A DNA stretch of 24,000 nt, from contig CALKHV010000032.1 in assembly GCA_937988865.1 (NCBI GenBank), positions 2,201 through 26,200 of the forward strand, given 5' to 3'. The notes beneath the pieces were generated by a model that was given only the letters and a program-made list of their open reading frames with translations, was not told the origin of the DNA and ran no database searches. The translations under genes were made by a program, and so were the position numbers. Positions 965 through 11,690 of this stretch are shown in pieces (within the stretch, counting starts at the first letter, position 1; every line of letters starts with the position of its first letter). This DNA comes from an uncultured Propionibacteriaceae bacterium (GTDB lineage: Bacteria; Actinomycetota; Actinomycetes; Propionibacteriales; Propionibacteriaceae).

Positions 965-1810
965 TCAGCGCAGCCGGGTCAGCGTGACCTCGACGAACAT
1001 GTCGCAGGTCTCGCCCCCGACGAACAGGCCCCGCAGCGGCGACACGTCCGCGTAGTCGCGGCCCCGCCCCACCACGATGTGGTCGTCCCCGACGGTCCCC
1101 TCGTTGGTGGGGTCGAGGCCGCGCCAGCCGCCGTCCCAGTACTCCAGCCAGGCGTGCGACTGGCCCGAGGACGATTCGCCGGCTGCCTGCTCGGTGTCGG
1201 GCATGAGGTAGCCGGAGACGTACCGGGCCGGCACTCCCCCGCTGCGCAGGGCACCGATGAGCACGTGCGTGAGGTCCTGGCACACACCGGCGCCGGTGGC
1301 CCACGCGTCGCGGGCGCTCGAGTGCACATCGGTCACGCCGGGCAGGTACGTGACGCGGGACACCACGAGGTCGCGCGCCAGCAGGACGAAGTCACTGGGA
1401 CGCGCGGCCGCCGCGCGCAGGTCAGCAGCCATGGACGCCAATTCGTCGGCGGGGGTGACCAGGCGTCCGAGGTTGAGGTACTCGGCGTGCTCGCTCACGA
1501 CCTCGGGACGCGTGAACGCGTCCCAACCGACGTTGTCCCACGTCACTGGACGGTGGTCGATGATCACCTCGCTCGTCGAGACGAGGCGCAGGTGCTCGTG
1601 GCGCTCATGGAGTTCGAAGGCCGTGACGGCCGTGCCCCAGTAGTCGGTGAAGGTGTGCGTCCAGGCCGAGGGTGACACCTCGACACGGGAGTGGAGCACC
1701 TGCTGGTCGCTCGTGTTCATCGGGGTCATGCGGGCCTCGTTGTACGACGAGGACGCGCCCCCCCGGTAGCTGTAGCCGGTGCTGTGCACGACGCGGAGCG
1801 TGAGGCTCAC
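965..1810 (-). CDS. Transglutaminase-fold (papain-like Cys-His-Asp) protein with bacterial transglutaminase N-terminal domain; third gene of ATP-grasp module 1
   Basis: 281-aa ORF. Its GTG start overlaps the upstream stop (GTGA, 1807-1810). The N-terminus MSLTLRVVHSTGYSYRG fits the Bact_transglu_N pattern. The core carries Cys (GAGVCQDLTH), His (SHAWLEYW) and Asp (GLDPTN). Confidence 0.9.
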   Translation of the reverse strand: MSLTLRVVHSTGYSYRGGASSSYNEARMTPMNTSDQQVLHSRVEVSPSAWTHTFTDYWGTAVTAFELHERHEHLRLVSTSEVIIDHRPVTWDNVGWDAFTRPEVVSEHAEYLNLGRLVTPADELASMAADLRAAAARPSDFVLLARDLVVSRVTYLPGVTDVHSSARDAWATGAGVCQDLTHVLIGALRSGGVPARYVSGYLMPDTEQAAGESSSGQSHAWLEYWDGGWRGLDPTNEGTVGDDHIVVGRGRDYADVSPLRGLFVGGETCDMFVEVTLTRLR

Positions 1811-2730
1811 AGCGCTCCTCCCTTCCAGGTGGGTGACGCGGCACCCTCGAAGTAGCGCTCCGAGATGGCGGCGTCGAGGTCGACGCAGAGGTGCTGCAGC
1901 GCGGTCAGTCGCTCGGGCAGCGTCGACAACACCTCATCCATGCGCTGGTACTCCAGTTCGGCGCGGGCCTTGCCCAGCAGCCACACCGGCGTCCCCTCGG
2001 CCCTCGCACCCTCAACGCCCGGTTCGAGCGCGGTGAGGGCCTCCTCGACCGACCGCAGGGAGTGGACCACCGAGCCCGGGAACAACCCGTCCAGCAGCAG
2101 GAAGCCTGCGGCGTCGCGTCCGAGGGTCTCGGCGCCATAGGTGCGGCGATAGGCGTGGAGCGCACCCCTGGCGCGCAGCGCACTGGTCCACGCGCTGGGC
2201 CGGTTCGGCGTGCTCGCGGCGAGCATCATCGTTCTGGCCGTCATGTCGACCTGCTCCAGGCCCCGCCCCAACTCGAGGAAGAGCCACCCCTCGTCGTGGC
2301 TCATCGCGCTGTCGGCGGTGCCGTTGATGACCGCGCACCGTTCGCGAAGCAGGTTGAGCGCCGAACTCGGACGCATGAGCCGTAGCGAGGGGCCCGAACC
2401 TGCGTGCCAGGTGGTGTTGATGGCCTCCCACATCTCGGGGGGAACCGTCTCGCGGGCACGACGGGCTGCCTCGCGGGCACCTGCGATCGCCGACACCACC
2501 GAGGGGGACGCGAGGTCGTGCAGCAGGAGTTGGGCGATCTCGTCGCTCACCGAGTCCGAGGTGCTCGGGTAACCCATCACGCCCAGGAGGGTTTGGGCCG
2601 CGTCGTGCACGTCGACGGTCGGATCCTCCACCACGAGTTGCAGGTGCACGTCGAGGATGCGGCAGGTGCTCTCGGCGCGCTGGACGTAGCGTCCGATCCA
2701 GTACAGCGACTCGGCGATCCGGCTCAGCAT
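1807..2730 (-). CDS. Alpha-E domain protein (COG2307 type); second gene of module 1
   Basis: ATG at 2730 is preceded by GGAGGA (complement of 2737-2742) with a 6-nt spacer. MLSRIAESLYWIGRYVQRAE is the hallmark alpha-E N-terminus. The ORF-track start at 2898 adds an Ala/Gly/Pro-rich extension that lies inside the upstream gene and is not supported. Confidence 0.88.
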   Translation of the reverse strand: MLSRIAESLYWIGRYVQRAESTCRILDVHLQLVVEDPTVDVHDAAQTLLGVMGYPSTSDSVSDEIAQLLLHDLASPSVVSAIAGAREAARRARETVPPEMWEAINTTWHAGSGPSLRLMRPSSALNLLRERCAVINGTADSAMSHDEGWLFLELGRGLEQVDMTARTMMLAASTPNRPSAWTSALRARGALHAYRRTYGAETLGRDAAGFLLLDGLFPGSVVHSLRSVEEALTALEPGVEGARAEGTPVWLLGKARAELEYQRMDEVLSTLPERLTALQHLCVDLDAAISERYFEGAASPTWKGGAL

Positions 2731-4319
2731 GTCGAATCCTCCACTCCTGTCTGCCGCCGCGCCTGTTGCTGCTGCTGCGGCTGCTCGTGCGGTGCGAGGA
2801 TGGCCCGCACACCCTGTTGTCCCTGCGGCAGGGCCACGAAGCGGGCCGACACCGGTGGGGCCGGGGGCTGGACGTCCAGGTCGTCCGTGAGCACCCACGT
2901 GTCCTTCGACCCGCCGCCCTGGGAGGAGTTCACGATCAACTCACCTTCAGGGAGCGCGACCCGGGTCAGGCCGCCCGGCAGCACCCTCACCTCATCGCCG
3001 TTGTTGACGGCGAACGGACGCAGATCCACGTGCCTCGCTGCGAACGTGCCGTCGATCATCGTGGGCACGGTCGACAGCTGGACGACGGGTTGGGCGATCC
3101 AGCCGCGAGGGTCGTCGAGGATCCGCTGACGCAGCGCGTCCAGTTCGGTCCGGGTGGCCGCGGGACCGATGACGATTCCCTTGCCGCCCGAGCCATCCAC
3201 GGGTTTGACGACGAGTTCCGCCAGTCGATCGAGCACCTCTACCCGATGGTCCGGCTCCTCCAGACGCCAGGTGTCGACGCCGGGGAGGATCGGTTCCTCG
3301 GACAGGTAGTAGCGCACCAGGTCGGGCACGTAGGTGTAGACGAGCTTGTCGTCGGCCACTCCATTGCCGATGGCGTTCGCGATCGTGACGTTGTTGCGTC
3401 GCACCGCGTTCAACAGACCAGCGCTGCCCAACAGGGAGTCGCCGCGGAACTGGGTCGGGTCGAGGAACTCGTCGTCGACCCGTCGATAGATGACGTGCAC
3501 CGGCCACAGACCCTTCGTGGTGCGCACGGAGACGCGTCCGTTGCGGCACACGAGGTCGCGTCCCTCGACGAGTTCGACGCCCATCATCCGGGCCAGCAGG
3601 GCGTGCTCGAAGTAGGCGGAGTTGTGGACGCCGGGCGTCAGGACCACGATCGTCGGATCGCTGACACCGGGTGGCGCTGCGGCCGCCAGCGCCTCCCGCA
3701 ACATCAACGGGTAGTTCTGCACGGGCAGGATCTTGTGGCGATTGGCGACCTCGGGCAGCGCCGACGTGATCGCCCGGCGGTTGGTCATCACGTACGACAC
3801 ACCCGAGGGGACGCGGACGTTGTCCTCCAGGACGCGGAACGTGCCCTTGGCATCCCTGACGAGGTCGATGCCCGCCACGTGCACACGGACGCCGTTGGCC
3901 GGCTCGATCCCGGCGACCACCCGGTGGAAGTGGGGTGAACTGGTGACCACCTGCCGGGGCACCACCCCGTCGGCGAAGACCTCGCCCTGACCGTAGACGT
4001 CGGCCAGGAACCGCTCGAGCGCCCTGACTCGCTGGGCGACCCCCTGCTCGATGCGCGTCCACTCGGACGCCTTCAGGATGCGGGGCAGGATGTCGAGCGG
4101 GAACGGCGTCTCGAGACCCCCGATGTCGAAGGTGACACCCTGGTCGAAATACGTTCGCCGCAGGTATTCCGCCCTCGACCTCACCTCGTCGGCGGGCAAC
4201 CCGCGCAGGATCTCCTCCAGTTGGGCGTAGACCTCACGCACCTCACCGGACGCGGGGTCGACGAACATCTCGTCGAACGCGCCGGGTGCGGCGGCATAGT
4301 CGTCAAAGAGCGGGCTCAC
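2724..4319 (-). CDS. Circularly permuted type-2 ATP-grasp protein (COG2308 type), putative amide/peptide ligase; first gene of module 1
   Basis: 531-aa ORF with a GTG start at 4319. Family motifs present: RFLADVYG, VLEDNVRVPSGVSY, VVKPVDGSGGKGIVIG, LPGGLTRVA, NSSQGGGSKDTWVL. The stop overlaps the alpha-E start (ATGCTGA, 2724-2730). Confidence 0.9.
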   Translation of the reverse strand: MSPLFDDYAAAPGAFDEMFVDPASGEVREVYAQLEEILRGLPADEVRSRAEYLRRTYFDQGVTFDIGGLETPFPLDILPRILKASEWTRIEQGVAQRVRALERFLADVYGQGEVFADGVVPRQVVTSSPHFHRVVAGIEPANGVRVHVAGIDLVRDAKGTFRVLEDNVRVPSGVSYVMTNRRAITSALPEVANRHKILPVQNYPLMLREALAAAAPPGVSDPTIVVLTPGVHNSAYFEHALLARMMGVELVEGRDLVCRNGRVSVRTTKGLWPVHVIYRRVDDEFLDPTQFRGDSLLGSAGLLNAVRRNNVTIANAIGNGVADDKLVYTYVPDLVRYYLSEEPILPGVDTWRLEEPDHRVEVLDRLAELVVKPVDGSGGKGIVIGPAATRTELDALRQRILDDPRGWIAQPVVQLSTVPTMIDGTFAARHVDLRPFAVNNGDEVRVLPGGLTRVALPEGELIVNSSQGGGSKDTWVLTDDLDVQPPAPPVSARFVALPQGQQGVRAILAPHEQPQQQQQARRQTGVEDSTC

Positions 4320-4325
4320 ACTCGC

Positions 4326-4331
4326 ACATTA
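4326..4331 (-). promoter_or_regulatory. Candidate -10 hexamer TAATGT (TANNNT) 6 nt upstream of the GTG start at 4319; suggests a leaderless transcript for module 1
   Basis: The complement of 4326-4331 reads TAATGT. No Shine-Dalgarno sequence lies between it and the start codon. Spacing fits actinobacterial -10-to-TSS geometry. Confidence 0.35.
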
Positions 4332-4333
4332 GG

Positions 4334-4369
4334 CACGTCGTGTAACACACGTGTTTCGTCCACGAAACA
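4334..4369. promoter_or_regulatory. Cluster of overlapping dyad-symmetric elements (putative operator) between the two divergent ATP-grasp modules
   Basis: Four elements: CACGtCGTG (4334-4342); CGTGT-aac-ACACG (4339-4351); the perfect palindrome ACACGTGT (4347-4354); and the perfect inverted repeat TGTTTCG-tcca-CGAAACA (4352-4369). This is the locally least GC-rich stretch of the intergenic region. Confidence 0.45.
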
Positions 4370-4409
4370 GGGCTGAACTCGTGGGCGTCCCGGTGCCCGG
4401 GCTGCCGCG

Positions 4410-4415
4410 TATGCT
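4410..4415 (+). promoter_or_regulatory. Candidate -10 hexamer TATGCT 7 nt upstream of ATG 4423; suggests a leaderless start for module 2
   Basis: TATGCT matches TANNNT. No SD precedes any candidate start (4351 GTG, 4381 GTG, 4411 ATG, 4423 ATG). The same hexamer precedes marR. Confidence 0.3.
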
Positions 4416-4422
4416 GACCACG

Positions 4423-6912
4423 ATGGGCACAGACACCACGTCGCGGCCGGCATTCCCGCCCGACATCCAGCGCGCCGTCGACGAGTGGGGTCTCTCGGGC
4501 TCGCTGCGTCGACGCTCGACCATTCGCCGCTACGTCGAGGACGACGGCATCGTCGTCGGACGCCGGCCCTCAGGCGCGCCCCGCAGCCTTCAGGTCGATC
4601 CGCTCCCGGTGGTGCTCGACGCAGTCGAGTGGTCGGCCCTGGAAGCCGGCCTCGCGCAGCGCGCCCACCTGCTCGAACTCCTCCTGGCCGATGTCTACGG
4701 CCCCCGACACCTTCTGGAGCGCGGCACGATCCCCGCCGAACTCGTGCTCGGCCACCCGGGGTTCGTCCCCCAGGCCGACGGCATCCCGACGCGCGACGAA
4801 CTGGTCCTCACGGCTACCGACCTGGGCCGCGCGTCCGATGGCCGGTGGACGGTGCTCGGCGACCGGACGGAGGCCCCCACCGGTGCGGGCTACGCCATGG
4901 CTGTGCGTCGTGTCACGGCGAGGGCGCTCACGGCCACCCACCGATCAGCCGACCTGCGGCGACTGCGCGGCTTCTTCGACAGCTTGCGTGGCCGCCTGCT
5001 GGCGCTGGCCTCCGGCACGTCCGAGGTGTCGCGCGTCGTCCTGCTCGGTGAAGGTGGCGACGGAGAGTCAGCTTTCGACGACGCCTTCACCGCCATGCTC
5101 CTGGGCTTCCCCCTCGCCCGCGCGGACGACCTCGTCCTGGCGGACGGGCGTCTCTGGCTGCGCACCACCGCCGGACGCGAACCCCTCGACATCGTGGTGC
5201 GCCGCGTGGACGCTCGGGCCAGTGACCCGCTCGACCTCGACTCGCGCTCGTCCAACGGCGTCCCGGGGCTGGTGGAGGCCTCACGCCGGGGCATGGTGAC
5301 GGTCGTCAATCCCCTGGGCTCCGGCATCCTGGAGAATCCGGCACTCGGTGCCTTCTGGTCAGGGATCTCGCGCGACCTGCTCGACAGCGATCCCCTGATC
5401 GAGGCTCCGCAGACGTGGTGGTGCGGTGATCGCGCATCGTTGTCGCACGTGCTCGCCCACCTGCCCGAGTTGATGCTGTCACCCCTCGGCCCCACCAGGG
5501 AGCGTCCGAGGCTGCGGGGGTCAGAGCTGAGTGCGTCGCAACGCGATGTGCTCTCCAGGCGCATCGAGGCCGAACCCTGGGCCTGGTCCGGTCAGGAGGT
5601 CGTTCCTGCGTGGCTCACGCCGATCGTGACGTCCCGCGGACTGGTGGAGCGTCCGACAGTGGTGCGGACCTTCACCCTCGGCGGAGCCGGAAGCCCCGTC
5701 GTCATGCCCGGCGGGCTCGCCAGGGCTGCATCCGACGACCAGCGGGCGGGCGTGGGGACGCTCGAACAGTCCATTGCCAAGGACCTCTGGGTCCTGGGCT
5801 CGGCGGGGGTCAAGGAGGCCGTCGAGGAGTTCGCGTCGATCCGCGTCGCCAGCCCCTCGAGCCCTTCAACTCCCGATGAAGCGTCCGAACCCCGTCCCCG
5901 GGGGCTGGCGATCGCACTCTCGAACCGGTCGGCCGAGGACCTGTACTGGTTCGGACGTTACGCGGAACGGGCGGAGGCCACCGCGCGACTGCTGCTCGTG
6001 GCCGACGACCTCGTCGAAGACCACCTCAACCGCCCGGGAACCGCCGGCCACGAGGCCATGACCGTCGTGCTGGACGCGATCGACACCCTGACTGCCGTCC
6101 GCCGGGAGCGACTGTTGTCGACGAGTGACAACGGTCAACCGGATGCCGTCAGGGAACCCCTGAGCCACCTGCGCCGCCTCGTCTTCGACGCCGCCCGCCG
6201 CGGGACGATCCATCACGCGGTCAGTCGTGCCGGTCAGGCGGCGGGCGAGGTGCGCGACCTCCTGTCGTCCGACACCTGGATGGTCCTCAGCCGACTCGAG
6301 CGTCACCTCACCGACCCACCCCCCGACGAGGAGCGCCTTCAACCGGTTCTCCTGAGCGTGGTCGAGTCGCTCCTCGCCCTGGCCGGGATGAGCGCCGAGG
6401 GACTCGTGCGCGATGCCAGCTGGGCCTTCTTCGACGCAGGGCGCCGGATGGAACGCAGCCAGGAGACACTGCGGCTCTTGCGCGCGATGCTGGGGCAGGC
6501 CCGGCGTCCCAGAGTGGACGCGTTCGCCCTCGAGGCCACCCTCCGGACGACCGACAGCATCATTTCCCACCGTCGCCGGCTGGTCGACGGACGCGGACGA
6601 CGCCACGAACTCGAGATCGCCCTCGACCTGCTGCTGGTCGACCCCACCAACCCCCGCTCGGTCCTCTACCAGCTCACCCGACTGCAGTCCGACCTGGCGT
6701 ACGTGCCCGAGTCGTCACTGGGTGATGCCACGGCGTCACTCGTGACCCTCACGCGCTCGCTCGACCCGCGCCAACTCGCACTCGGCGAACGGGCGCGTCT
6801 GGTCGAGGCCCTGACCGCCGTCGAGAAGCGCCTCCGCGCCCTGTCCCAGCTCCTCGACAGCACCCACTTCACGCACCAGGTGCGGTCGCGCGTGGTGGTG
6901 GAAGGACTGTGA
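4423..6912 (+). CDS. Fusion protein: circularly permuted ATP-grasp-like domain + C-terminal alpha-E domain (module 2), joined by a Ser/Pro-rich linker
   Basis: The reading frame is open from 4351. The start is uncertain (4351/4381/4411/4423). I prefer 4423 because the palindromic operator occupies 4334-4369 and a TANNNT box lies at 4410-4415. The N-terminal ~480 aa are paralogous to the 531-aa ATP-grasp protein (LLADVYG, APTGAGYAMAVRR, VVRRVDA, MPGGLARAA, KDLWVL). The linker is ASPSSPSTPDEASEPRP. The C-terminal part, starting at AEDLYWFGRYAERAEATARLL, is paralogous to the alpha-E gene. Stop TGA at 6910-6912. Confidence 0.88.
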   Translation: MGTDTTSRPAFPPDIQRAVDEWGLSGSLRRRSTIRRYVEDDGIVVGRRPSGAPRSLQVDPLPVVLDAVEWSALEAGLAQRAHLLELLLADVYGPRHLLERGTIPAELVLGHPGFVPQADGIPTRDELVLTATDLGRASDGRWTVLGDRTEAPTGAGYAMAVRRVTARALTATHRSADLRRLRGFFDSLRGRLLALASGTSEVSRVVLLGEGGDGESAFDDAFTAMLLGFPLARADDLVLADGRLWLRTTAGREPLDIVVRRVDARASDPLDLDSRSSNGVPGLVEASRRGMVTVVNPLGSGILENPALGAFWSGISRDLLDSDPLIEAPQTWWCGDRASLSHVLAHLPELMLSPLGPTRERPRLRGSELSASQRDVLSRRIEAEPWAWSGQEVVPAWLTPIVTSRGLVERPTVVRTFTLGGAGSPVVMPGGLARAASDDQRAGVGTLEQSIAKDLWVLGSAGVKEAVEEFASIRVASPSSPSTPDEASEPRPRGLAIALSNRSAEDLYWFGRYAERAEATARLLLVADDLVEDHLNRPGTAGHEAMTVVLDAIDTLTAVRRERLLSTSDNGQPDAVREPLSHLRRLVFDAARRGTIHHAVSRAGQAAGEVRDLLSSDTWMVLSRLERHLTDPPPDEERLQPVLLSVVESLLALAGMSAEGLVRDASWAFFDAGRRMERSQETLRLLRAMLGQARRPRVDAFALEATLRTTDSIISHRRRLVDGRGRRHELEIALDLLLVDPTNPRSVLYQLTRLQSDLAYVPESSLGDATASLVTLTRSLDPRQLALGERARLVEALTAVEKRLRALSQLLDSTHFTHQVRSRVVVEGL

Positions 6913-7823
6913 GGGCTGCGTCCGAGAAGAACCACCAAACTCGTCGTTACAAGGTGAAACACCGCACCGACTACACCTATGACGAAGAGGTCACGGCCTC
7001 CTACGGCCGGGCTGTCCTGCGTCCACGCGACACTCCGACGCAGCGAGTCATCCGGCACCAGATCGAGGTGACGCCCACGCCCAACACACTCCTCGAGCAC
7101 GTCGACTTCTTCGGCAACTACAGCCACTACCTCGAGATCCACACTCCTCACCGGCAGCTCGACGTCACCAAGCACGCCGTCGTCAACGTGGCCACGCCCA
7201 TGACCGATCTGGCCCGCTTCGACCGCTGGACGGTCGGCGACGGTGCGGCCGCAGCGGCCGCGGCCCCCTACGACACCGCCCTGCGCGCCGCGTTCACCCT
7301 GCCCTCGGCGCTCGTCGACCAGGGTGACGCGGTCCGGCGATTCGCCGCCGAGGCCTTCCCGAGCGACGCCCCCCTCGGACGCGCACTCGACCACCTGGTG
7401 AGCTTCATCCACGCCGAGTTCCGCTACACCCCCGGCGCGACCACCGTCCACACGACACTGCCTGAACTCCTGGATGCACGGGCGGGCGTCTGCCAGGACT
7501 TCGCCCAGCTCGCCATCGGCTGCCTGCGCGCCCAGGGCTACGCAGCCCGCTACGTGAGTGGCTACCTCGAGACGCAGCCGCCGCCGGGCCAACCCAAACT
7601 CGAGGGCGCGGACGCCACCCACGCGTGGCTCGCCGTGATGCTCCCGGACGGGACGTGGCTCGATCTGGACCCCACGAACGACTGCGCGGCCGATTCCCGC
7701 TACGTCGTGACTGCCTGGGGACGCGACTACCGCGACGTGGCCCCCCTGAAAGGCGTGATCTACAGCGAGGGTGCGTCCAGTTCATTGAAAGTCTCGGTCG
7801 ACGTCACCCGACTCCCTGACTGA
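6909..7823 (+). CDS. Transglutaminase-fold protein with bacterial transglutaminase N-terminal domain (module 2 paralogue)
   Basis: The GTG start overlaps the upstream stop (GTGA, 6909-6912). RYKVKHRTDYTYDEEV fits the N-terminal domain pattern. Triad context: AGVCQDFAQLAIGCLRAQGYAARYVSGY, THAWLAV, LDLDPTN. Confidence 0.9.
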   Translation: MRAASEKNHQTRRYKVKHRTDYTYDEEVTASYGRAVLRPRDTPTQRVIRHQIEVTPTPNTLLEHVDFFGNYSHYLEIHTPHRQLDVTKHAVVNVATPMTDLARFDRWTVGDGAAAAAAAPYDTALRAAFTLPSALVDQGDAVRRFAAEAFPSDAPLGRALDHLVSFIHAEFRYTPGATTVHTTLPELLDARAGVCQDFAQLAIGCLRAQGYAARYVSGYLETQPPPGQPKLEGADATHAWLAVMLPDGTWLDLDPTNDCAADSRYVVTAWGRDYRDVAPLKGVIYSEGASSSLKVSVDVTRLPD

Positions 7824-7847: not shown

Positions 7848-8324
7848 ATGGAGCCCACCCTCGACCACGTCCTCGCCACGATCGACGCCCTGGTCGCATC
7901 CACCTGGCCCACCACCGAGGCCGAGCGCATCGCCTGGTTCACCGAGCACAACCTGCACCCCACCCGCGCGCTGGGTGACGACCCTGAATGGGGCACGGCC
8001 GTGCCCGGCTGGGGCGATGCGGCGATCACCTGGTCGAGCTTCGAGGACGAGTTCGTCGACGTCGGCTGGTTCCTGCACCCCGGCGCCGGCGAAGAGGTCC
8101 TCACGGCCGAGTTCGCGCAGCTCGCCACCGGGCTTGCCGAACGGTTCGGTGATCCGGTCGAGTACTCCGACCCCGACGAGCCGCTCGGCGGCGTGTGGCA
8201 GGACGGCGTCCATTCGATCCAGCTCTACGCCCACACCGAAGAGGGCGACTGCCTGCAGATCCACGTCGGCCTGACCGAACGTGAAGAGGCCCAGGCGATC
8301 GCGTCCGGGGAGTTCGGGGTCTGA
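7848..8324 (+). CDS. Hypothetical acidic, Trp-rich 158-aa protein; probably the last gene of the module-2 operon
   Basis: ATG lies 24 nt after the transglutaminase stop on the same strand. Third codon positions are strongly GC-rich in this frame. The overlapping alternative frame (7840..8274) gives Pro/Ser/Thr/Arg-rich nonsense. I recognise no family. Confidence 0.6.
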   Translation: MEPTLDHVLATIDALVASTWPTTEAERIAWFTEHNLHPTRALGDDPEWGTAVPGWGDAAITWSSFEDEFVDVGWFLHPGAGEEVLTAEFAQLATGLAERFGDPVEYSDPDEPLGGVWQDGVHSIQLYAHTEEGDCLQIHVGLTEREEAQAIASGEFGV

Positions 8325-8327
8325 GCT

Positions 8328-9191
8328 TCAGTCCACGATGAGCGGCTCCATGGCCGCTCGCGTCTCGTCGGGCAGCGCCATCGGACGTCCGCCGGGGTCG
8401 GCACACACCAGCACGGTCCTTGCTCGCGCCATGACCTTTCCACCGGCCAGCGGATCGGTGATCTCGCAGGCGATGACGGCCGACGAACTCCCCAGCCCCA
8501 CAGGTGCGGTCACGACGTCGTACGGCTCCAGCCTGTAGTCCATCTGGACGAGGTAGTCGACGTCCTGGCGGGCCACGAGCCACATGTACCGGGGTGCGTC
8601 CGAGGTCATGCCGAGTCGGGCCGTGGCCGGGTCGGCCTCGGTCGTCATGGCGATCCGGGCTTCCTGCACGTAGTCGAAGTAGCGGACGTTGTTGACATGG
8701 CCGTAGGAGTCGAGGTCGCTCCAGCGCACCTGCAGCGGGTGATGATGTCCGCGTCCTGACAGTGCCGGAGCCTCCAGCGGACGCATCGCCGGCAGGTCAC
8801 GCTGCACCGACATGAAGTGGTCGCGCTCCGACCGCGTCATGCGCCTCGGCGTCCCCGCGGTGAAGTCGAACGGGCACAGGATGGTCGTCGCACGGGCGCA
8901 CAACTCACCGTCGTGACGCAGCTCGTAACCGATGACGAACCGTGCCGCCCCGACCTCGGCCACCGCCAACTCGATCTCCATGGGCCGGTCGGAGTACGAG
9001 ATCGGACGCAGGTACTCGATCTGGTGGCCCACCACGACGACCCCACCCCCAAGCATGTGGTGGTTGGGGCCGTCCAGCAGGAATTGCGCGCGCGCCTCCT
9101 GCAGGTAGTCGACGTAGAGGGCGTTGTTGACGTGCCCCTGTGCGTCCATGTCGCCCCATCGGATCGGGGCGGTGAAGGTGTTCCTGGTCAC
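8328..9191 (-). CDS. Tandem (double) hotdog-fold acyl-CoA thioesterase, 4HBT/YbgC-like
   Basis: 287 aa with two internal repeats. Each repeat carries the 4HBT-type signature: RWGDMDAQGHVNNALYVDYLQEAR (aa 11-34) and RWSDLDSYGHVNNVRYFDYVQEAR (aa 156-179). The GTG start overlaps the fadD stop (GTGA, 9188-9191). Confidence 0.85.
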   Translation of the reverse strand: MTRNTFTAPIRWGDMDAQGHVNNALYVDYLQEARAQFLLDGPNHHMLGGGVVVVGHQIEYLRPISYSDRPMEIELAVAEVGAARFVIGYELRHDGELCARATTILCPFDFTAGTPRRMTRSERDHFMSVQRDLPAMRPLEAPALSGRGHHHPLQVRWSDLDSYGHVNNVRYFDYVQEARIAMTTEADPATARLGMTSDAPRYMWLVARQDVDYLVQMDYRLEPYDVVTAPVGLGSSSAVIACEITDPLAGGKVMARARTVLVCADPGGRPMALPDETRAAMEPLIVD

Positions 9192-11038
9192 TCGGACGCT
9201 TCGTCGTCGTACAGGGAGTCGACCGCGTCGGCGTAGGTCGCGGCGATGACGTTGCGACGCACCTTCATGTTGGGAGTCACCCCACCCTCATCGACGGTCA
9301 GCTCGTGGTCGAGGATGGCGAACCGCTTGACCGTCTCCCAGCGCTCGAGGTGGCTGTTGGCGCGGTCCATGAAACGTCCGATGGACGCGTGGATCTCGGG
9401 CAGCTGCGTCAGCTCCGCATAGCTGAGGTCTTTGTGGCCACGACGTTCGGCCCACTTCTCCAGGCTCACGGGGTCGAGCGTGACGAGGGCGACGATGTAC
9501 TTGCGTCCCTCGCCCAGTGCGACGGCCTGACTCACGTACGGGATGTTGGCCGAGATCGCCGATTCGACCTTCTGCGGGGCGACGTACTTGCCGCCCGAGG
9601 TCTTCATGAGGTCCTTCTTGCGGTCGGTGATCGTCAGGTAGCCGTCGGCGTCGAGGGACCCGATGTCGCCGGTGTGGAACCACCCGTCGGTGTAGGACTC
9701 GGCGTTCGCCTCGGGCGAGTTGTGGTAGCCGACTGTGATGGTCGGCCCCTTGAGGAGCAGTTCGCCGTCCTCGGCGATCTTCGCCTCGATGCCCGGAATG
9801 ACCGGTCCGACGGTGCCGAAGCGCGGCTTGGTCGGGACGTTGACGAAGGCGACGGCGGAGGTCTCGGTCATGCCGTACCCCTCCACGACGATGATCCCGG
9901 CCGAGTAGAACCACTCCTGAACCTGGCTCGACAACTTGGCCGAACCGGAGATGAAGAACTTGATGTTGCCGCCCATCTTCTCCTTGAGCTTGGAGAAGAC
10001 GATCTTGTCGGCGACCTTGTAGCGGGCGGCGAGGCTGCGGGGCATGGGTTGGCCGGCGAGGCGGTAGCTGCGGGACTCGCGTCCGACCGCGAACGCCCAA
10101 CGGGTGAGGCGACCCTTGATGCCGTCACGCGGAGCCGATGTCATCACGGCGTTGCGGACCTTCTCGAAGATGCGTGGCGCGCCACACATGAAGGTGGGGT
10201 GCACTTCTCCGAGGCCGGCCATGATGCGGTCCAGGCGTCCATCGACGGCGGTCGCGAAGCCGATGGCGATCTGGATCGAGACAAGGCACTTGCCGAAGAC
10301 GTGCGACAGCGGGAGCCACAGGTACTGCACGTCATCGAGTTCCAGGATGTCCAGCGCGTCGATGGCGACGCCCTCGTATGCCCAGGCCTCGTGGGTGAGT
10401 TCGACCCCCTTCGGACGTCCGGTGGTGCCCGAGGTGTAGATCAGGGTGCTGAGGTGGTCGCGCGTCGTTGCGTCGATGGCCTGCTCGACCGAGTCGGGAT
10501 GTTCCGCGAGGTGGGCGCGTCCGAGGGCCACGAACTCCGACCAGGTCAGGACGCGGGGATCAGGGTGATCACCCCTGCGGTCGTCGTCGATCAGGATGAT
10601 GTGGTGAATCTGGTCGTCGAGTTCGGACGCCGACTGCACCTTCGCCGCCTGAGCGCTGTTCTCGGCGACGAAGACGACGGACGCCGAGTCCTGCAGGATG
10701 TACACGACGTCGTCGACCTGGGTGTTGGGGTACACCGTGGTGGTGGCCCCGCCTGCGCAGGCGATCCCGAGGTCGGCGAGGATCCACTCCATCCTCGTGC
10801 TGGACGCGATGGCCACCCGTTGCTCGAGGGCCAGCCCGAGCGCGACGAAGCCGGCGGCGCACTCGTGGACCGCGGTCTGGGCCTGCGTCCACGTCATGGG
10901 CGTCCACGTGTTGGGGCCGTCGACGCGGTCGGGCACGAGGTAGGCAGTGGCGTGGGGAGTCAGGTGGACGCGACGTCGGAGCATGTCTCCGATGTTGTTG
11001 GCGCTCTGCGCCAGGATCTCAGCCTGTGTGGTGGCCAT
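9188..11038 (-). CDS. fadD: Long-chain fatty-acid--CoA ligase (AMP-forming acyl-CoA synthetase, FadD15-like size class)
   Basis: ATG at 11038 (MATTQAEIL...) is preceded by GAGGAG. AMP-binding motifs are present: LIYTSGTTGRPKGV, EGYGMTE, TGDIG, DRKKDLMKTSGGKYVAPQ. The ORF-track start at 11065 is 9 codons further upstream and lacks an SD. Confidence 0.9.
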   Translation of the reverse strand: MATTQAEILAQSANNIGDMLRRRVHLTPHATAYLVPDRVDGPNTWTPMTWTQAQTAVHECAAGFVALGLALEQRVAIASSTRMEWILADLGIACAGGATTTVYPNTQVDDVVYILQDSASVVFVAENSAQAAKVQSASELDDQIHHIILIDDDRRGDHPDPRVLTWSEFVALGRAHLAEHPDSVEQAIDATTRDHLSTLIYTSGTTGRPKGVELTHEAWAYEGVAIDALDILELDDVQYLWLPLSHVFGKCLVSIQIAIGFATAVDGRLDRIMAGLGEVHPTFMCGAPRIFEKVRNAVMTSAPRDGIKGRLTRWAFAVGRESRSYRLAGQPMPRSLAARYKVADKIVFSKLKEKMGGNIKFFISGSAKLSSQVQEWFYSAGIIVVEGYGMTETSAVAFVNVPTKPRFGTVGPVIPGIEAKIAEDGELLLKGPTITVGYHNSPEANAESYTDGWFHTGDIGSLDADGYLTITDRKKDLMKTSGGKYVAPQKVESAISANIPYVSQAVALGEGRKYIVALVTLDPVSLEKWAERRGHKDLSYAELTQLPEIHASIGRFMDRANSHLERWETVKRFAILDHELTVDEGGVTPNMKVRRNVIAATYADAVDSLYDDEASE

Positions 11039-11174
11039 GGGGGTGCTCCTCTTGGTCGATTGCACAGTCTATCGGTGACGGGCGTCCGAGCCTGTGGATG
11101 AACCGGCCAAAGGGTGGCACGCCGACTGGTCGGGAACTGACACGAGGGCCCGCAAATCCAATAATGGCGGACGT

Positions 11175-11189: not shown

Positions 11190-11690
11190 ATGGCCACGAC
11201 CTCTCTGCCCGTATTCCAGCCCGGTGATCCCGCGACCGAATCGACGGACGTGCCGTGGTTGTCTGACGAGCAGCAAAGGGTATGGCGCGCCTGGCTCCTC
11301 GGCGTGGCGCGGATCGACGACTACCTCGACCGCGACCTCCGCGGCCGCGGCCTCGACATGGGTGAGTACGAGATCCTCGTGTGCCTGTCTGAGGCTCCTG
11401 CGCGGAGCATGCGCATGTCTGAGCTCGCCGATCTCGTGCACCAGTCGCGTTCACGCCTGACCCACACGATCACGCGCATGGAGCGCGACGGCTACATCGC
11501 CCGGTGCTGCGCGCCCGATGATGGGCGCGGCGTCAATGCGAGTCTCACCGATGACGGGTTCGCCCTGCTCGAAGATGCAGCGCCCAGTCACGTCCGCGCT
11601 GTGCGCCGCATCTTTGTGGACGCGGTCGACCCGCGCGATTTCGCCGCCATCGGACGCGCCATGGAGGCCGTCCTCGCGGTGGCAGACTGA
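11190..11690 (+). CDS. MarR family transcriptional regulator
   Basis: 166 aa with a typical MarR winged-helix core (EYEILVCLSEAPARSMRMSELADLVHQSRSRLTHTITRMERDGYIAR...DGRGVNASLTDDG). It is divergent from fadD and lies 4 nt upstream of the next gene. Confidence 0.88.
   Translation: MATTSLPVFQPGDPATESTDVPWLSDEQQRVWRAWLLGVARIDDYLDRDLRGRGLDMGEYEILVCLSEAPARSMRMSELADLVHQSRSRLTHTITRMERDGYIARCCAPDDGRGVNASLTDDGFALLEDAAPSHVRAVRRIFVDAVDPRDFAAIGRAMEAVLAVAD

Follow-up and report, generated by a model that had tools for sequence, protein, structure and literature searches.

The window analyzed here is a stretch of 24,000 nucleotides from an uncultured Propionibacteriaceae bacterium (G+C about 69%; the nearest named relatives are Propionibacteriales such as Propioniciclava, Micropruina, and Nocardioides). 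It carries two divergently transcribed operons of the system that brings together a circularly permuted ATP-grasp domain, an Alpha-E domain, and a transglutaminase-like protein. On the minus strand the three are encoded separately. On the plus strand the ATP-grasp and Alpha-E domains are fused, and it is this fused protein that is the subject of what follows: its ATP-grasp domain keeps, in the predicted structure, the fold of the family but lacks the residues expected to hold Mg-ATP.

The two operons and their ATP-grasp proteins

The genes and domains of the two operons are these:

4351..6912, plus strand: fused circularly permuted ATP-grasp and Alpha-E protein, taken as the longest open reading frame (853 amino acids)
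start at 4381, plus strand: the same fused gene as given by public gene calls (843 amino acids)
4606..5730, plus strand: ATP-grasp domain of the fused protein; fold retained in the predicted structure, catalytic signature gone
5920..6870, plus strand: Alpha-E domain of the fused protein (Pfam)
6909..7823, plus strand: transglutaminase-like protein of 304 amino acids, overlapping the fused gene by 4 nt
2724..4319, minus strand: standalone circularly permuted ATP-grasp protein of 531 amino acids (Pfam E 2.9e-158); signature complete
1807..2730, minus strand: standalone Alpha-E protein (gene call, 307 amino acids; the longest open reading frame extends to 2898)
965..1810, minus strand: transglutaminase-like protein of the standalone operon, 281 amino acids (Pfam)

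Pfam finds CP_ATPgrasp_2 (E 6.8e-110, residues 86-460) and Alpha-E (E 5.3e-55, residues 524-840) in the fused protein, which thus has both domains on one polypeptide of about 800-900 amino acids, the mark of what is called here the fused class. The Alpha-E domain has its conserved ER motifs intact (R536-Y-A-E539-R540 and E701-R702, at invariant alignment columns), and a Cys-His-Asp triad is present in both transglutaminases (Cys195-His238-Asp254 on the plus strand, Cys177-His219-Asp233 on the minus strand). Genes within the operons overlap by 7 nt (2724-2730), 4 nt (1807-1810), and 4 nt (6909-6912), which suggests translational coupling of ATP-grasp, Alpha-E, and transglutaminase in one operon and of the fused protein and its transglutaminase in the other. 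The spacer between the operons (4320-4380) amounts to 31 nt by the longest open reading frames and 61 nt by the public gene calls, so the promoters of both operons must sit inside it or overlap it.

Both ATP-grasp proteins belong to the Pfam families CP_ATPgrasp_1 (PF04174) and CP_ATPgrasp_2 (PF14403), scoring 368 and 253 bits for the fused protein and 527 and 482 bits for the standalone one, with cut-offs of 32 and 23. Both also align by HMMER, without gaps at the motifs considered below, to the solved structure 3n6x (Mfla_0391), with E-values of 9e-149 (standalone) and 1.7e-43 (fused). A profile of the standalone class run by HMMER against all PDB sequences (E up to 10) found nothing beyond 3n6x. 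The standalone protein runs about 50 residues past the C-terminal end of 3n6x (2724-2880, minus strand; residues about 480-531), and within this extension is a Gln-rich run, HEQPQQQQQARRQ.

An earlier sequence-only reading of this DNA had aligned the two paralogues by eye, concluded that the fused one had lost its nucleotide- and Mg-binding signatures, and proposed as checks a structure prediction, a profile-profile alignment, and a comparison of orthologues. The AlphaFold model of the fused protein is confident (predicted local distance difference test, pLDDT, 83; predicted template modeling score 0.81) and exceeds a pLDDT of 90 over most of the ATP-grasp domain; the initial 33 residues of the long reading frame are predicted to be disordered (pLDDT below 50). 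Foldseek matches the model to 3n6x with a template modeling (TM) score of 0.77 (normalized to the target) and a root-mean-square deviation of 3.2 over 411 columns (E 2e-24). The next neighbors are eukaryotic glutathione synthetases, at TM scores of about 0.65. Judged by the model, the permuted ATP-grasp fold is retained in the fused protein.

BLASTP aligns the fused and standalone proteins at 29% identity over 431 columns with 4 gaps (E 1e-50). When a 22-sequence standalone alignment and a 34-sequence fused alignment are compared as profiles by hhalign, the match has a probability of 100% (E 5e-118), and the motifs are paired in this way:

standalone VLEDNlRvPSGVSY with fused V..DRTQaPSGaGY
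standalone GVADDK with fused GvLENP
standalone LVvKpaneSGGyGm with fused LVIKpi.r......
standalone RHVDLRPF with fused R..vLRtF

MAFFT alignments that include orthologues give the same correspondence as BLASTP, HMMER (3n6x), and hhalign. Because BLASTP, HMMER to 3n6x, and the profile-profile alignment agree, the correspondence of motifs between the paralogues is secure at the level of sequence; the pairing first made by eye is upheld by hhalign and by three further methods. The three motif pairs quoted in that reading are indeed in the translations: 4855-5520 of the plus strand reads LGDRTEAPTG...LMLSPLGPTRERPRLRG, the complement of 3801-3830 reads LEDNVRVPSG, that of 3165-3212 reads VVKPVDGSGGKGIVIG, and NSSQGGGSKDTWVL and GTLEQSIAKDLWVL are found in the two proteins. 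The differences, residue by residue, are as follows.

4852..4893, plus strand: fused VLGDRTEAPTGAGY against standalone VLEDNVRVPSGVSY (BLASTP, hhalign, class comparison); E165 is replaced by G170, N167 by R172, and R169 by E174; D171, P176, G178, and Y181 are retained
3801..3830, minus strand: standalone E-x-N-x-R-x-P-[SG] motif (E165, N167, R169)
5332..5340, plus strand: fused E328-N329-P330 against standalone D323-D324-K325
3345..3362, minus strand: standalone GVADDK (D323, D324, K325), invariant in the standalone class
5470..5520, plus strand: fused LMLSPLGPTRERPRLRG against standalone LVVKPVDGSGGKGIVIG; K372 is replaced by S377, and the Gly-rich loop is replaced
3165..3212, minus strand: standalone K372 and Gly-rich loop
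within this loop: standalone S377-G378-G379-x-G381 against T382-R383-E384-x-P386 in the window's fused protein; hypervariable, with insertions and deletions, in the fused class
5656..5673, plus strand: fused T-V437-V-R439-T-F against standalone V-D432-L-R434-P-F; Asp becomes hydrophobic, Arg is retained
5755..5796, plus strand: fused GTLEQSIAKDLWVL against standalone NSSQGGGSKDTWVL; the SSQGGG loop is lost, K477-D478-x-W480 retained
2889..2930, minus strand: standalone C-terminal Gly-rich loop, invariant in the standalone class
within this loop: standalone N464-S-S-Q467 and G469-G470 against G469-T-L-E472 and S474-I475 in the window's fused protein; the standalone pattern is not conserved in the fused class

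The change of E-x-N to G-x-R, as first described, is thus borne out by the alignments, as is the difference in the third motif pair, the lost SSQGGG loop. Beyond what had been noticed, there are the class-wide replacement of R169 by E174 (consensus Q), that of D323-D324-K325 by E328-N329-P330, and that of D432 by V437.

What these residues do can be judged from better-known relatives. E-x-N-x-R-x-P-[S/G] is the classical Mg-binding and catalytic strand of ATP-grasp enzymes, seen in biotin carboxylase as E288, N290, and R292 and in DdlB as E270 and N272. By sequence, K372 with GSGGxG would be the classical lysine and Gly-rich loop (GSGGKG in the standalone protein, corresponding to PTRERP in the fused one). 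K325 is likely the first phosphate-binding lysine, equivalent by its spacing to Lys305 of human glutathione synthetase. The E-x-N residues of the human enzyme are E144 and N146, and the spacing from E165 to K325 to K372 (160 and 47 residues) is near that from human E144 to K305 to K364 (161 and 59). Glutathione synthetase uses Lys305 and Lys364 (human numbering) to bind the phosphates; a G-loop closes over the site, and acidic residues serve as ligands to two Mg2+ (PMC2845819). D432, in HVDLRPF, was considered as a third Mg ligand and dropped: spacing to E165, compared with that in DdlB, biotin carboxylase, and yeast glutathione synthetase (Asp130/Glu146), favors D152, a likely third metal ligand by sequence and one retained in the fused class.

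A competent ligase should have E-x-N, Arg, and a Pro-[Ser/Gly] turn, along with two phosphate-binding lysines and a Gly-rich loop. The standalone protein has them (E165-D-N167-V-R169, both lysines, and the loop); the fused protein has neither set complete. The earlier impression that the standalone protein looks competent thus fits its full signature and its close homology to 3n6x, and a standalone ATP-grasp from an operon of the same type, the Anbu operon of Yersinia bercovieri, releases phosphate from ATP (PMC6376114), the sole biochemistry found. The standalone fragment with the lysine and Gly-rich loop also gives weak matches, each below significance (E 0.0075-0.1), to profiles of classical ATP-grasp families (ATPgrasp_ST, YheCD (ATPgrasp_YheCD), ATP-grasp_3, GSH-S_ATP, and the NCBIfam MptN); the equivalent fused fragment gives none in the same scans. 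The isolated E-x-N fragment matched no classical ATP-grasp family in a Pfam scan.

Distribution, age, and gene neighborhoods of the fused class

A genome scan, with an alignment of closer homologues as the query, found at least 598 confirmed loci of the fused class. Eighty were kept for comparison, from the Actinomycetota, Gamma-, Beta-, and Deltaproteobacteria, Bacteroidota, Planctomycetota, Acidobacteria, Verrucomicrobia, Chloroflexota, and Poribacteria (about nine phyla). In all, 81 fused ATP-grasp domains were compared position by position with 20 standalone ones (19 from the related loci plus the window's copy).

E-x-N is absent from all 80 fused genes of the related loci, one of which has the Glu without the Asn. 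Neither E nor N occurs at these positions in any of the 120 best database matches to the fused protein (43-100% identity), and 119 of them have R or K in place of the Asn. Representatives of 50%-identity clusters, 150 of them at 32-53% identity, mostly have [A/S/G]-D-R there. The fused consensus at the site is [A/S/G]-D-R-T-Q-A-P-S-G: the position of E165 is A, S, or G, that of N167 is R in about 90% of members, and that of R169 is Q in about 90%. The window's copy, with G-D-R-T-E, has E instead of the consensus Q and still clusters with the fused class. A few fused orthologues depart from the signature at E-x-N-x-R (L076:9854-12451, L063:9875-12445, and L069:9902-12430), reading E-D-R-N, N-D-F-K, and N-D-R-D; L076 is the one that retains the Glu and not the Asn.

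The other motifs behave in various ways. K325, which never varies in the standalone class, has become P in 66 of the 81 fused sequences; the position of D432 is hydrophobic across the fused class; and the region of the Gly-rich loop is hypervariable, with insertions and deletions. At the position of K372, however, about 85% of the fused class still has K or R, so the claim that the lysine and the Gly-rich loop are both gone holds for the window's copy and, for the loop, across the class, while the loss of the lysine is limited to the window's lineage and some relatives. The signature E-D-N-[R/G]-K-x-S-G-G-G-Q-D-R-R-Q-G-G-G-K-D is found in all 19 standalone paralogues of the related loci, as it is in the window's standalone copy, and at each position 119-120 of the 120 closest standalone homologues conform to it. 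Chance does not account for such a pattern.

Neighbor joining of the ATP-grasp domains separates the fused and standalone proteins into two clean groups, split in 50 of 50 bootstraps, with mean identities of 58% within the standalone class, 48% within the fused class, and 34% between them. Whether the loss is class-wide or specific to a lineage had been left to such a comparison, and for E-x-N the answer is class-wide, with no exception in the sets of 120 homologues and 80 loci. Since the absence runs through the class and the two classes split cleanly, the sequences place the loss as a single event, older than the spread of the fused class over the bacterial phyla.

The genes around the fused gene also recur. 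A small transglutaminase lies directly downstream in about 75 of the 80 loci, as it does in the window. The most frequent extra partner is a transglutaminase domain joined to DUF2126 ('putative amidoligase'), encoded by a gene of about 1,100-1,200 amino acids just upstream of the fused gene in 29-34 of the 60 loci with enough upstream sequence. Four of these genes are:

L011:6176-9742
L047:6247-9654
L060:6427-9798
L001:6107-9862

No such gene is found in the window or in the 10 kb on either side of it. Of the 43 fully flanked loci, 15 also have standalone ATP-grasp and Alpha-E genes no more than 8-10 kb from the fused gene, usually running in the same direction, and there are co-directional clusters of five genes, encoding ATP-grasp, Alpha-E, transglutaminase-DUF2126, the fused protein, and the small transglutaminase. 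A divergent layout like that of the window is seen at locus L055. The sequence-only reading had thought an active/inactive pair an unusual organization. With the pair present in 15 of 43 loci, it is instead a recurrent feature of the system, not an oddity, and what is rare is the divergent orientation alone. Just two things set the window apart, its head-to-head orientation and the absence of a DUF2126 gene within 10 kb. A role for the fused protein as a dedicated regulator of the adjacent standalone ligase becomes less likely, as a standalone gene is nearby in just about a third of the fully flanked loci.

Possible roles of the fused protein

In the ATP-grasp domain, 48 positions are invariant or nearly so in both classes. 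Retained in common (standalone/fused numbering) are D152/D157, R155/R160, D166/D171, Q410/Q415, R434/R439, R453/R458, K472/K477, D473/D478, and about 40 others. About 29 positions conserved at 85% or more are specific to the fused class, whose own conserved residues include R172, Q174, G180, E239, E328, W356-W357-x-G359, and E416. To judge from these patterns, the fused class is under purifying selection, its function changed rather than decaying. The motif W356-W357-C358-G359 (5416-5427, plus strand) is near-invariant in the fused class (W357 and G359 in 100%) and without conservation in the standalone class, the window's standalone copy reading WRLE at this position. It may mark a functional site specific to the class.

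Because of this purifying selection and because the class has invariant residues of its own, the fused protein is better regarded as a functional pseudo-enzyme than as a decaying gene. The reading that we consider probable is that the fused class is ancient and monophyletic and that its ATP-grasp domain keeps the fold, has lost the Mg-ATP residues, and serves most plausibly as a non-catalytic adaptor. One part of this can be held with more confidence than the whole. The class as a whole has lost the Glu and Asn of E-x-N that are expected to bind the metal, the Arg at the second position beyond that Asn, the likely first of the two phosphate-binding lysines, and the Gly-rich loop; the window's lineage has lost the second lysine too. 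With the residues that hold Mg-ATP gone, the domain is very probably dead as an ATP-dependent ligase of the canonical kind, and it should be unable to form an acyl-phosphate. The role of scaffold, adaptor, or regulator put forward in the sequence-only reading is plausible, and for the adaptor role itself we see about equal chances of being right and wrong. If it is right, the retained substrate-side surface and the Alpha-E domain would bind a substrate, product, or partner without catalysis, and the fused protein would couple the bound molecule to the adjacent Cys-His-Asp transglutaminase-like enzyme. The ligase chemistry would then come from true ligases: the standalone paralogue here, the transglutaminase-DUF2126 amidoligase in many other genomes.

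Several points weigh against this view. The adaptor role is drawn purely from gene context, and the proposed roles of single residues come from motif, spacing, and analogy. The former active site is not blank. It carries new conserved residues, R172, Q at 174, E328, and E416, and the class retains D157, D171, K or R at 377 (in most members), Q415, R439, R458, K477, and D478. From sequence, so conserved a pocket would look like a re-purposed ligand-binding or catalytic site. The word 'degenerate' therefore suits the fused domain only in part: the phosphate-binding loop varies freely, but the former metal site is held by a conserved Arg and Gln. The sequence-only reading had itself named different but invariant residues at these positions as something that would speak against it, and such residues are partly there (R about 90%, Q about 90%, with E328 and E416).

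Perhaps, then, the remodeled site is that of an enzyme or a ligand sensor, binding a nucleotide, phosphorylated compound, or carboxylate without Mg2+ and carrying out a different reaction or acting as an allosteric switch. Besides the Arg and Gln at former catalytic positions, E328 is conserved in 91% of members and E416 in 86%, a basic residue stands at the VVKP position in most members, and D157, D171, Q415, R439, R458, K477, and D478 are invariant or nearly so. Also, the Foldseek neighbors include glutathione-synthetase-like nematode proteins named 'effectors' by their depositors, proteins that probably have an altered function. However, the class has lost the first Lys and the Gly-rich loop, on which every ATP-grasp enzyme relies to hold the phosphates, and the loop region is free to vary in length and sequence. 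The second Lys has been lost repeatedly, the window's copy included, and the gene kept regardless. We know of no precedent for Mg-free catalysis by an ATP-grasp enzyme, and this too counts against the proposal, which we regard as unlikely.

Comparably doubtful is the idea that the fused class is an ancient 'reader', an adaptor pseudo-ligase whose pocket (D-R-x-Q with E328 and E416) recognizes the substrate or ligated product of the true ligases. If true, the reader would present the molecule to a dedicated transglutaminase-like peptidase or cross-linker, and a bacterial peptide-tagging pathway linked to nitrogen limitation would have a writer/reader/eraser logic.

Much less can be said for a decay confined to one lineage, in which a redundant paralogue is on its way to becoming a pseudogene in one organism. 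The window's copy does go beyond the class consensus, with S and not K or R at 377, E and not Q at 174, and Q473 and not the usual Gly. But its open reading frame is intact, its model confident, and many class-invariant residues are in place, and orthologues from eight groups (Actinomycetota, Proteobacteria, Bacteroidota, Planctomycetota, Acidobacteria, Verrucomicrobia, Chloroflexota, and Poribacteria) have identical substitutions. The class-wide pattern refutes the idea, which is highly improbable. Least credible of all is an artifact of alignment, with the true catalytic residues elsewhere in the fused sequence: nothing was found to support it, and it is refuted, at the level of sequence, by four alignment methods that concur without gaps at the motifs, by invariants of both classes that bracket them (D166/D171, P171/P176, G173/G178, Y176/Y181, and L-V-x-K-P), and by a fused consensus with no E-x-N or K...GxGGxG pattern elsewhere.

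Surroundings, known systems, and significance

Little else in the window bears on the ATP-grasp pair. An open reading frame of 158 amino acids (7848-8324, plus strand; gene-called in public assemblies) begins 24 nt beyond the plus-strand transglutaminase gene and is read in the same direction. It was rejected as a component of the system, since Pfam finds no match to it and none of the 80 related loci has a counterpart. The remaining genes are unrelated housekeeping genes: 6-phosphogluconate dehydrogenase, a thioesterase, an acyl-CoA synthetase-like enzyme, an oxidase with flavin adenine dinucleotide and iron-sulfur centers, CoaBC, and a peptide ABC transporter. A MarR-family regulator (public gene calls; 11190-11690, plus strand) adjoins the genes for the acyl-CoA synthetase-like enzyme and a double hot-dog thioesterase (9188-11065, minus strand), and the three look like a separate small module unrelated to the ATP-grasp pair.

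The three-gene system was reportedly described by comparative genomics in Iyer et al. 2009. A description by the same means was given by Valas and Bourne in 2008 (PMC3235984), and the system has been predicted to function in peptide ligation or tagging and in removal of the tag, with the transglutaminase fold as the peptidase (PMC3495828, PMC5666114, PMC6376114). Under nitrogen limitation, NtrC and sigma-54 switch the cluster on in Burkholderia cenocepacia (PMC5491218). The fused class is not discussed in the literature searched, a search that did not take in the paper of Iyer and colleagues. The Pfam text for CP_ATPgrasp_1, citing that paper, is said to call the family 'present both as catalytically active and inactive versions' and to mention 'a transglutaminase fused N-terminal to a circularly permuted COOH-NH2 ligase domain'. 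In view of this description, the existence of inactive versions is treated here as already recognized, probably since 2009.

In its three domains and their order, the minus-strand operon matches the circularly permuted ATP-grasp/Alpha-E/transglutaminase system (COG2308-COG2307-COG1305), known as the Anbu operon in proteobacteria and cyanobacteria. The Anbu operon, however, has an Ntn-hydrolase gene (Anbu) after the transglutaminase, and no such gene lies in the window or within 10 kb of it; the plus-strand operon uses the fused, inactive version. We take Rv2567 of Mycobacterium tuberculosis to be the fused member in that organism and Rv2411c the standalone one. Both were expressed as candidates for an ATP-binding domain, and neither makes γ-aminobutyrate-trehalose (bioRxiv 10.64898/2026.04.15.718621). 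The window's protein resembles the Rv2567 type (the Rv2566-Rv2567-Rv2569c region) in length, two-domain architecture, and downstream small transglutaminase. Unlike about half of such loci, which have the upstream transglutaminase-DUF2126 gene, the window has a divergent standalone operon, and unlike most of the class, its fused copy also lacks the VVKP lysine.

The permuted fold is shared by eukaryotic glutathione synthetase, in which E-x-N lies in the N-terminal part and two Lys and a G-loop bind the phosphates, but identity to it is only 11-14%, the fused protein is without the catalytic residues, and the proposed equivalence of residues is drawn from spacing. Pseudokinases and the inactive transglutaminase-like domains of ciliary proteins are alike in having a fold kept, catalytic residues lost, purifying selection, and active relatives nearby. 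The same pseudo-enzyme argument was made for those transglutaminase-like domains by Aravind's group (PMC3495828). The comparison is only an analogy of logic.

The fused protein of the window is an additional, metagenomic member of a known and widespread class, and no new kind of system. The system itself is widespread: Rv2411c-2409c and Rv2566-2569c in M. tuberculosis belong to it, as do the Anbu operons of proteobacteria, with their response to nitrogen limitation. If the fused class is made up of pseudo-enzymes, as we think probable, assays of Rv2567-like proteins for ligase activity would be misdirected. Such proteins would instead be candidates for binding the adjacent transglutaminases and the true ligases or for regulating them, and the conserved residues specific to the class (R172, Q/E174, E328, E416, and W356-W357-C358-G359) would be the targets for mutagenesis.

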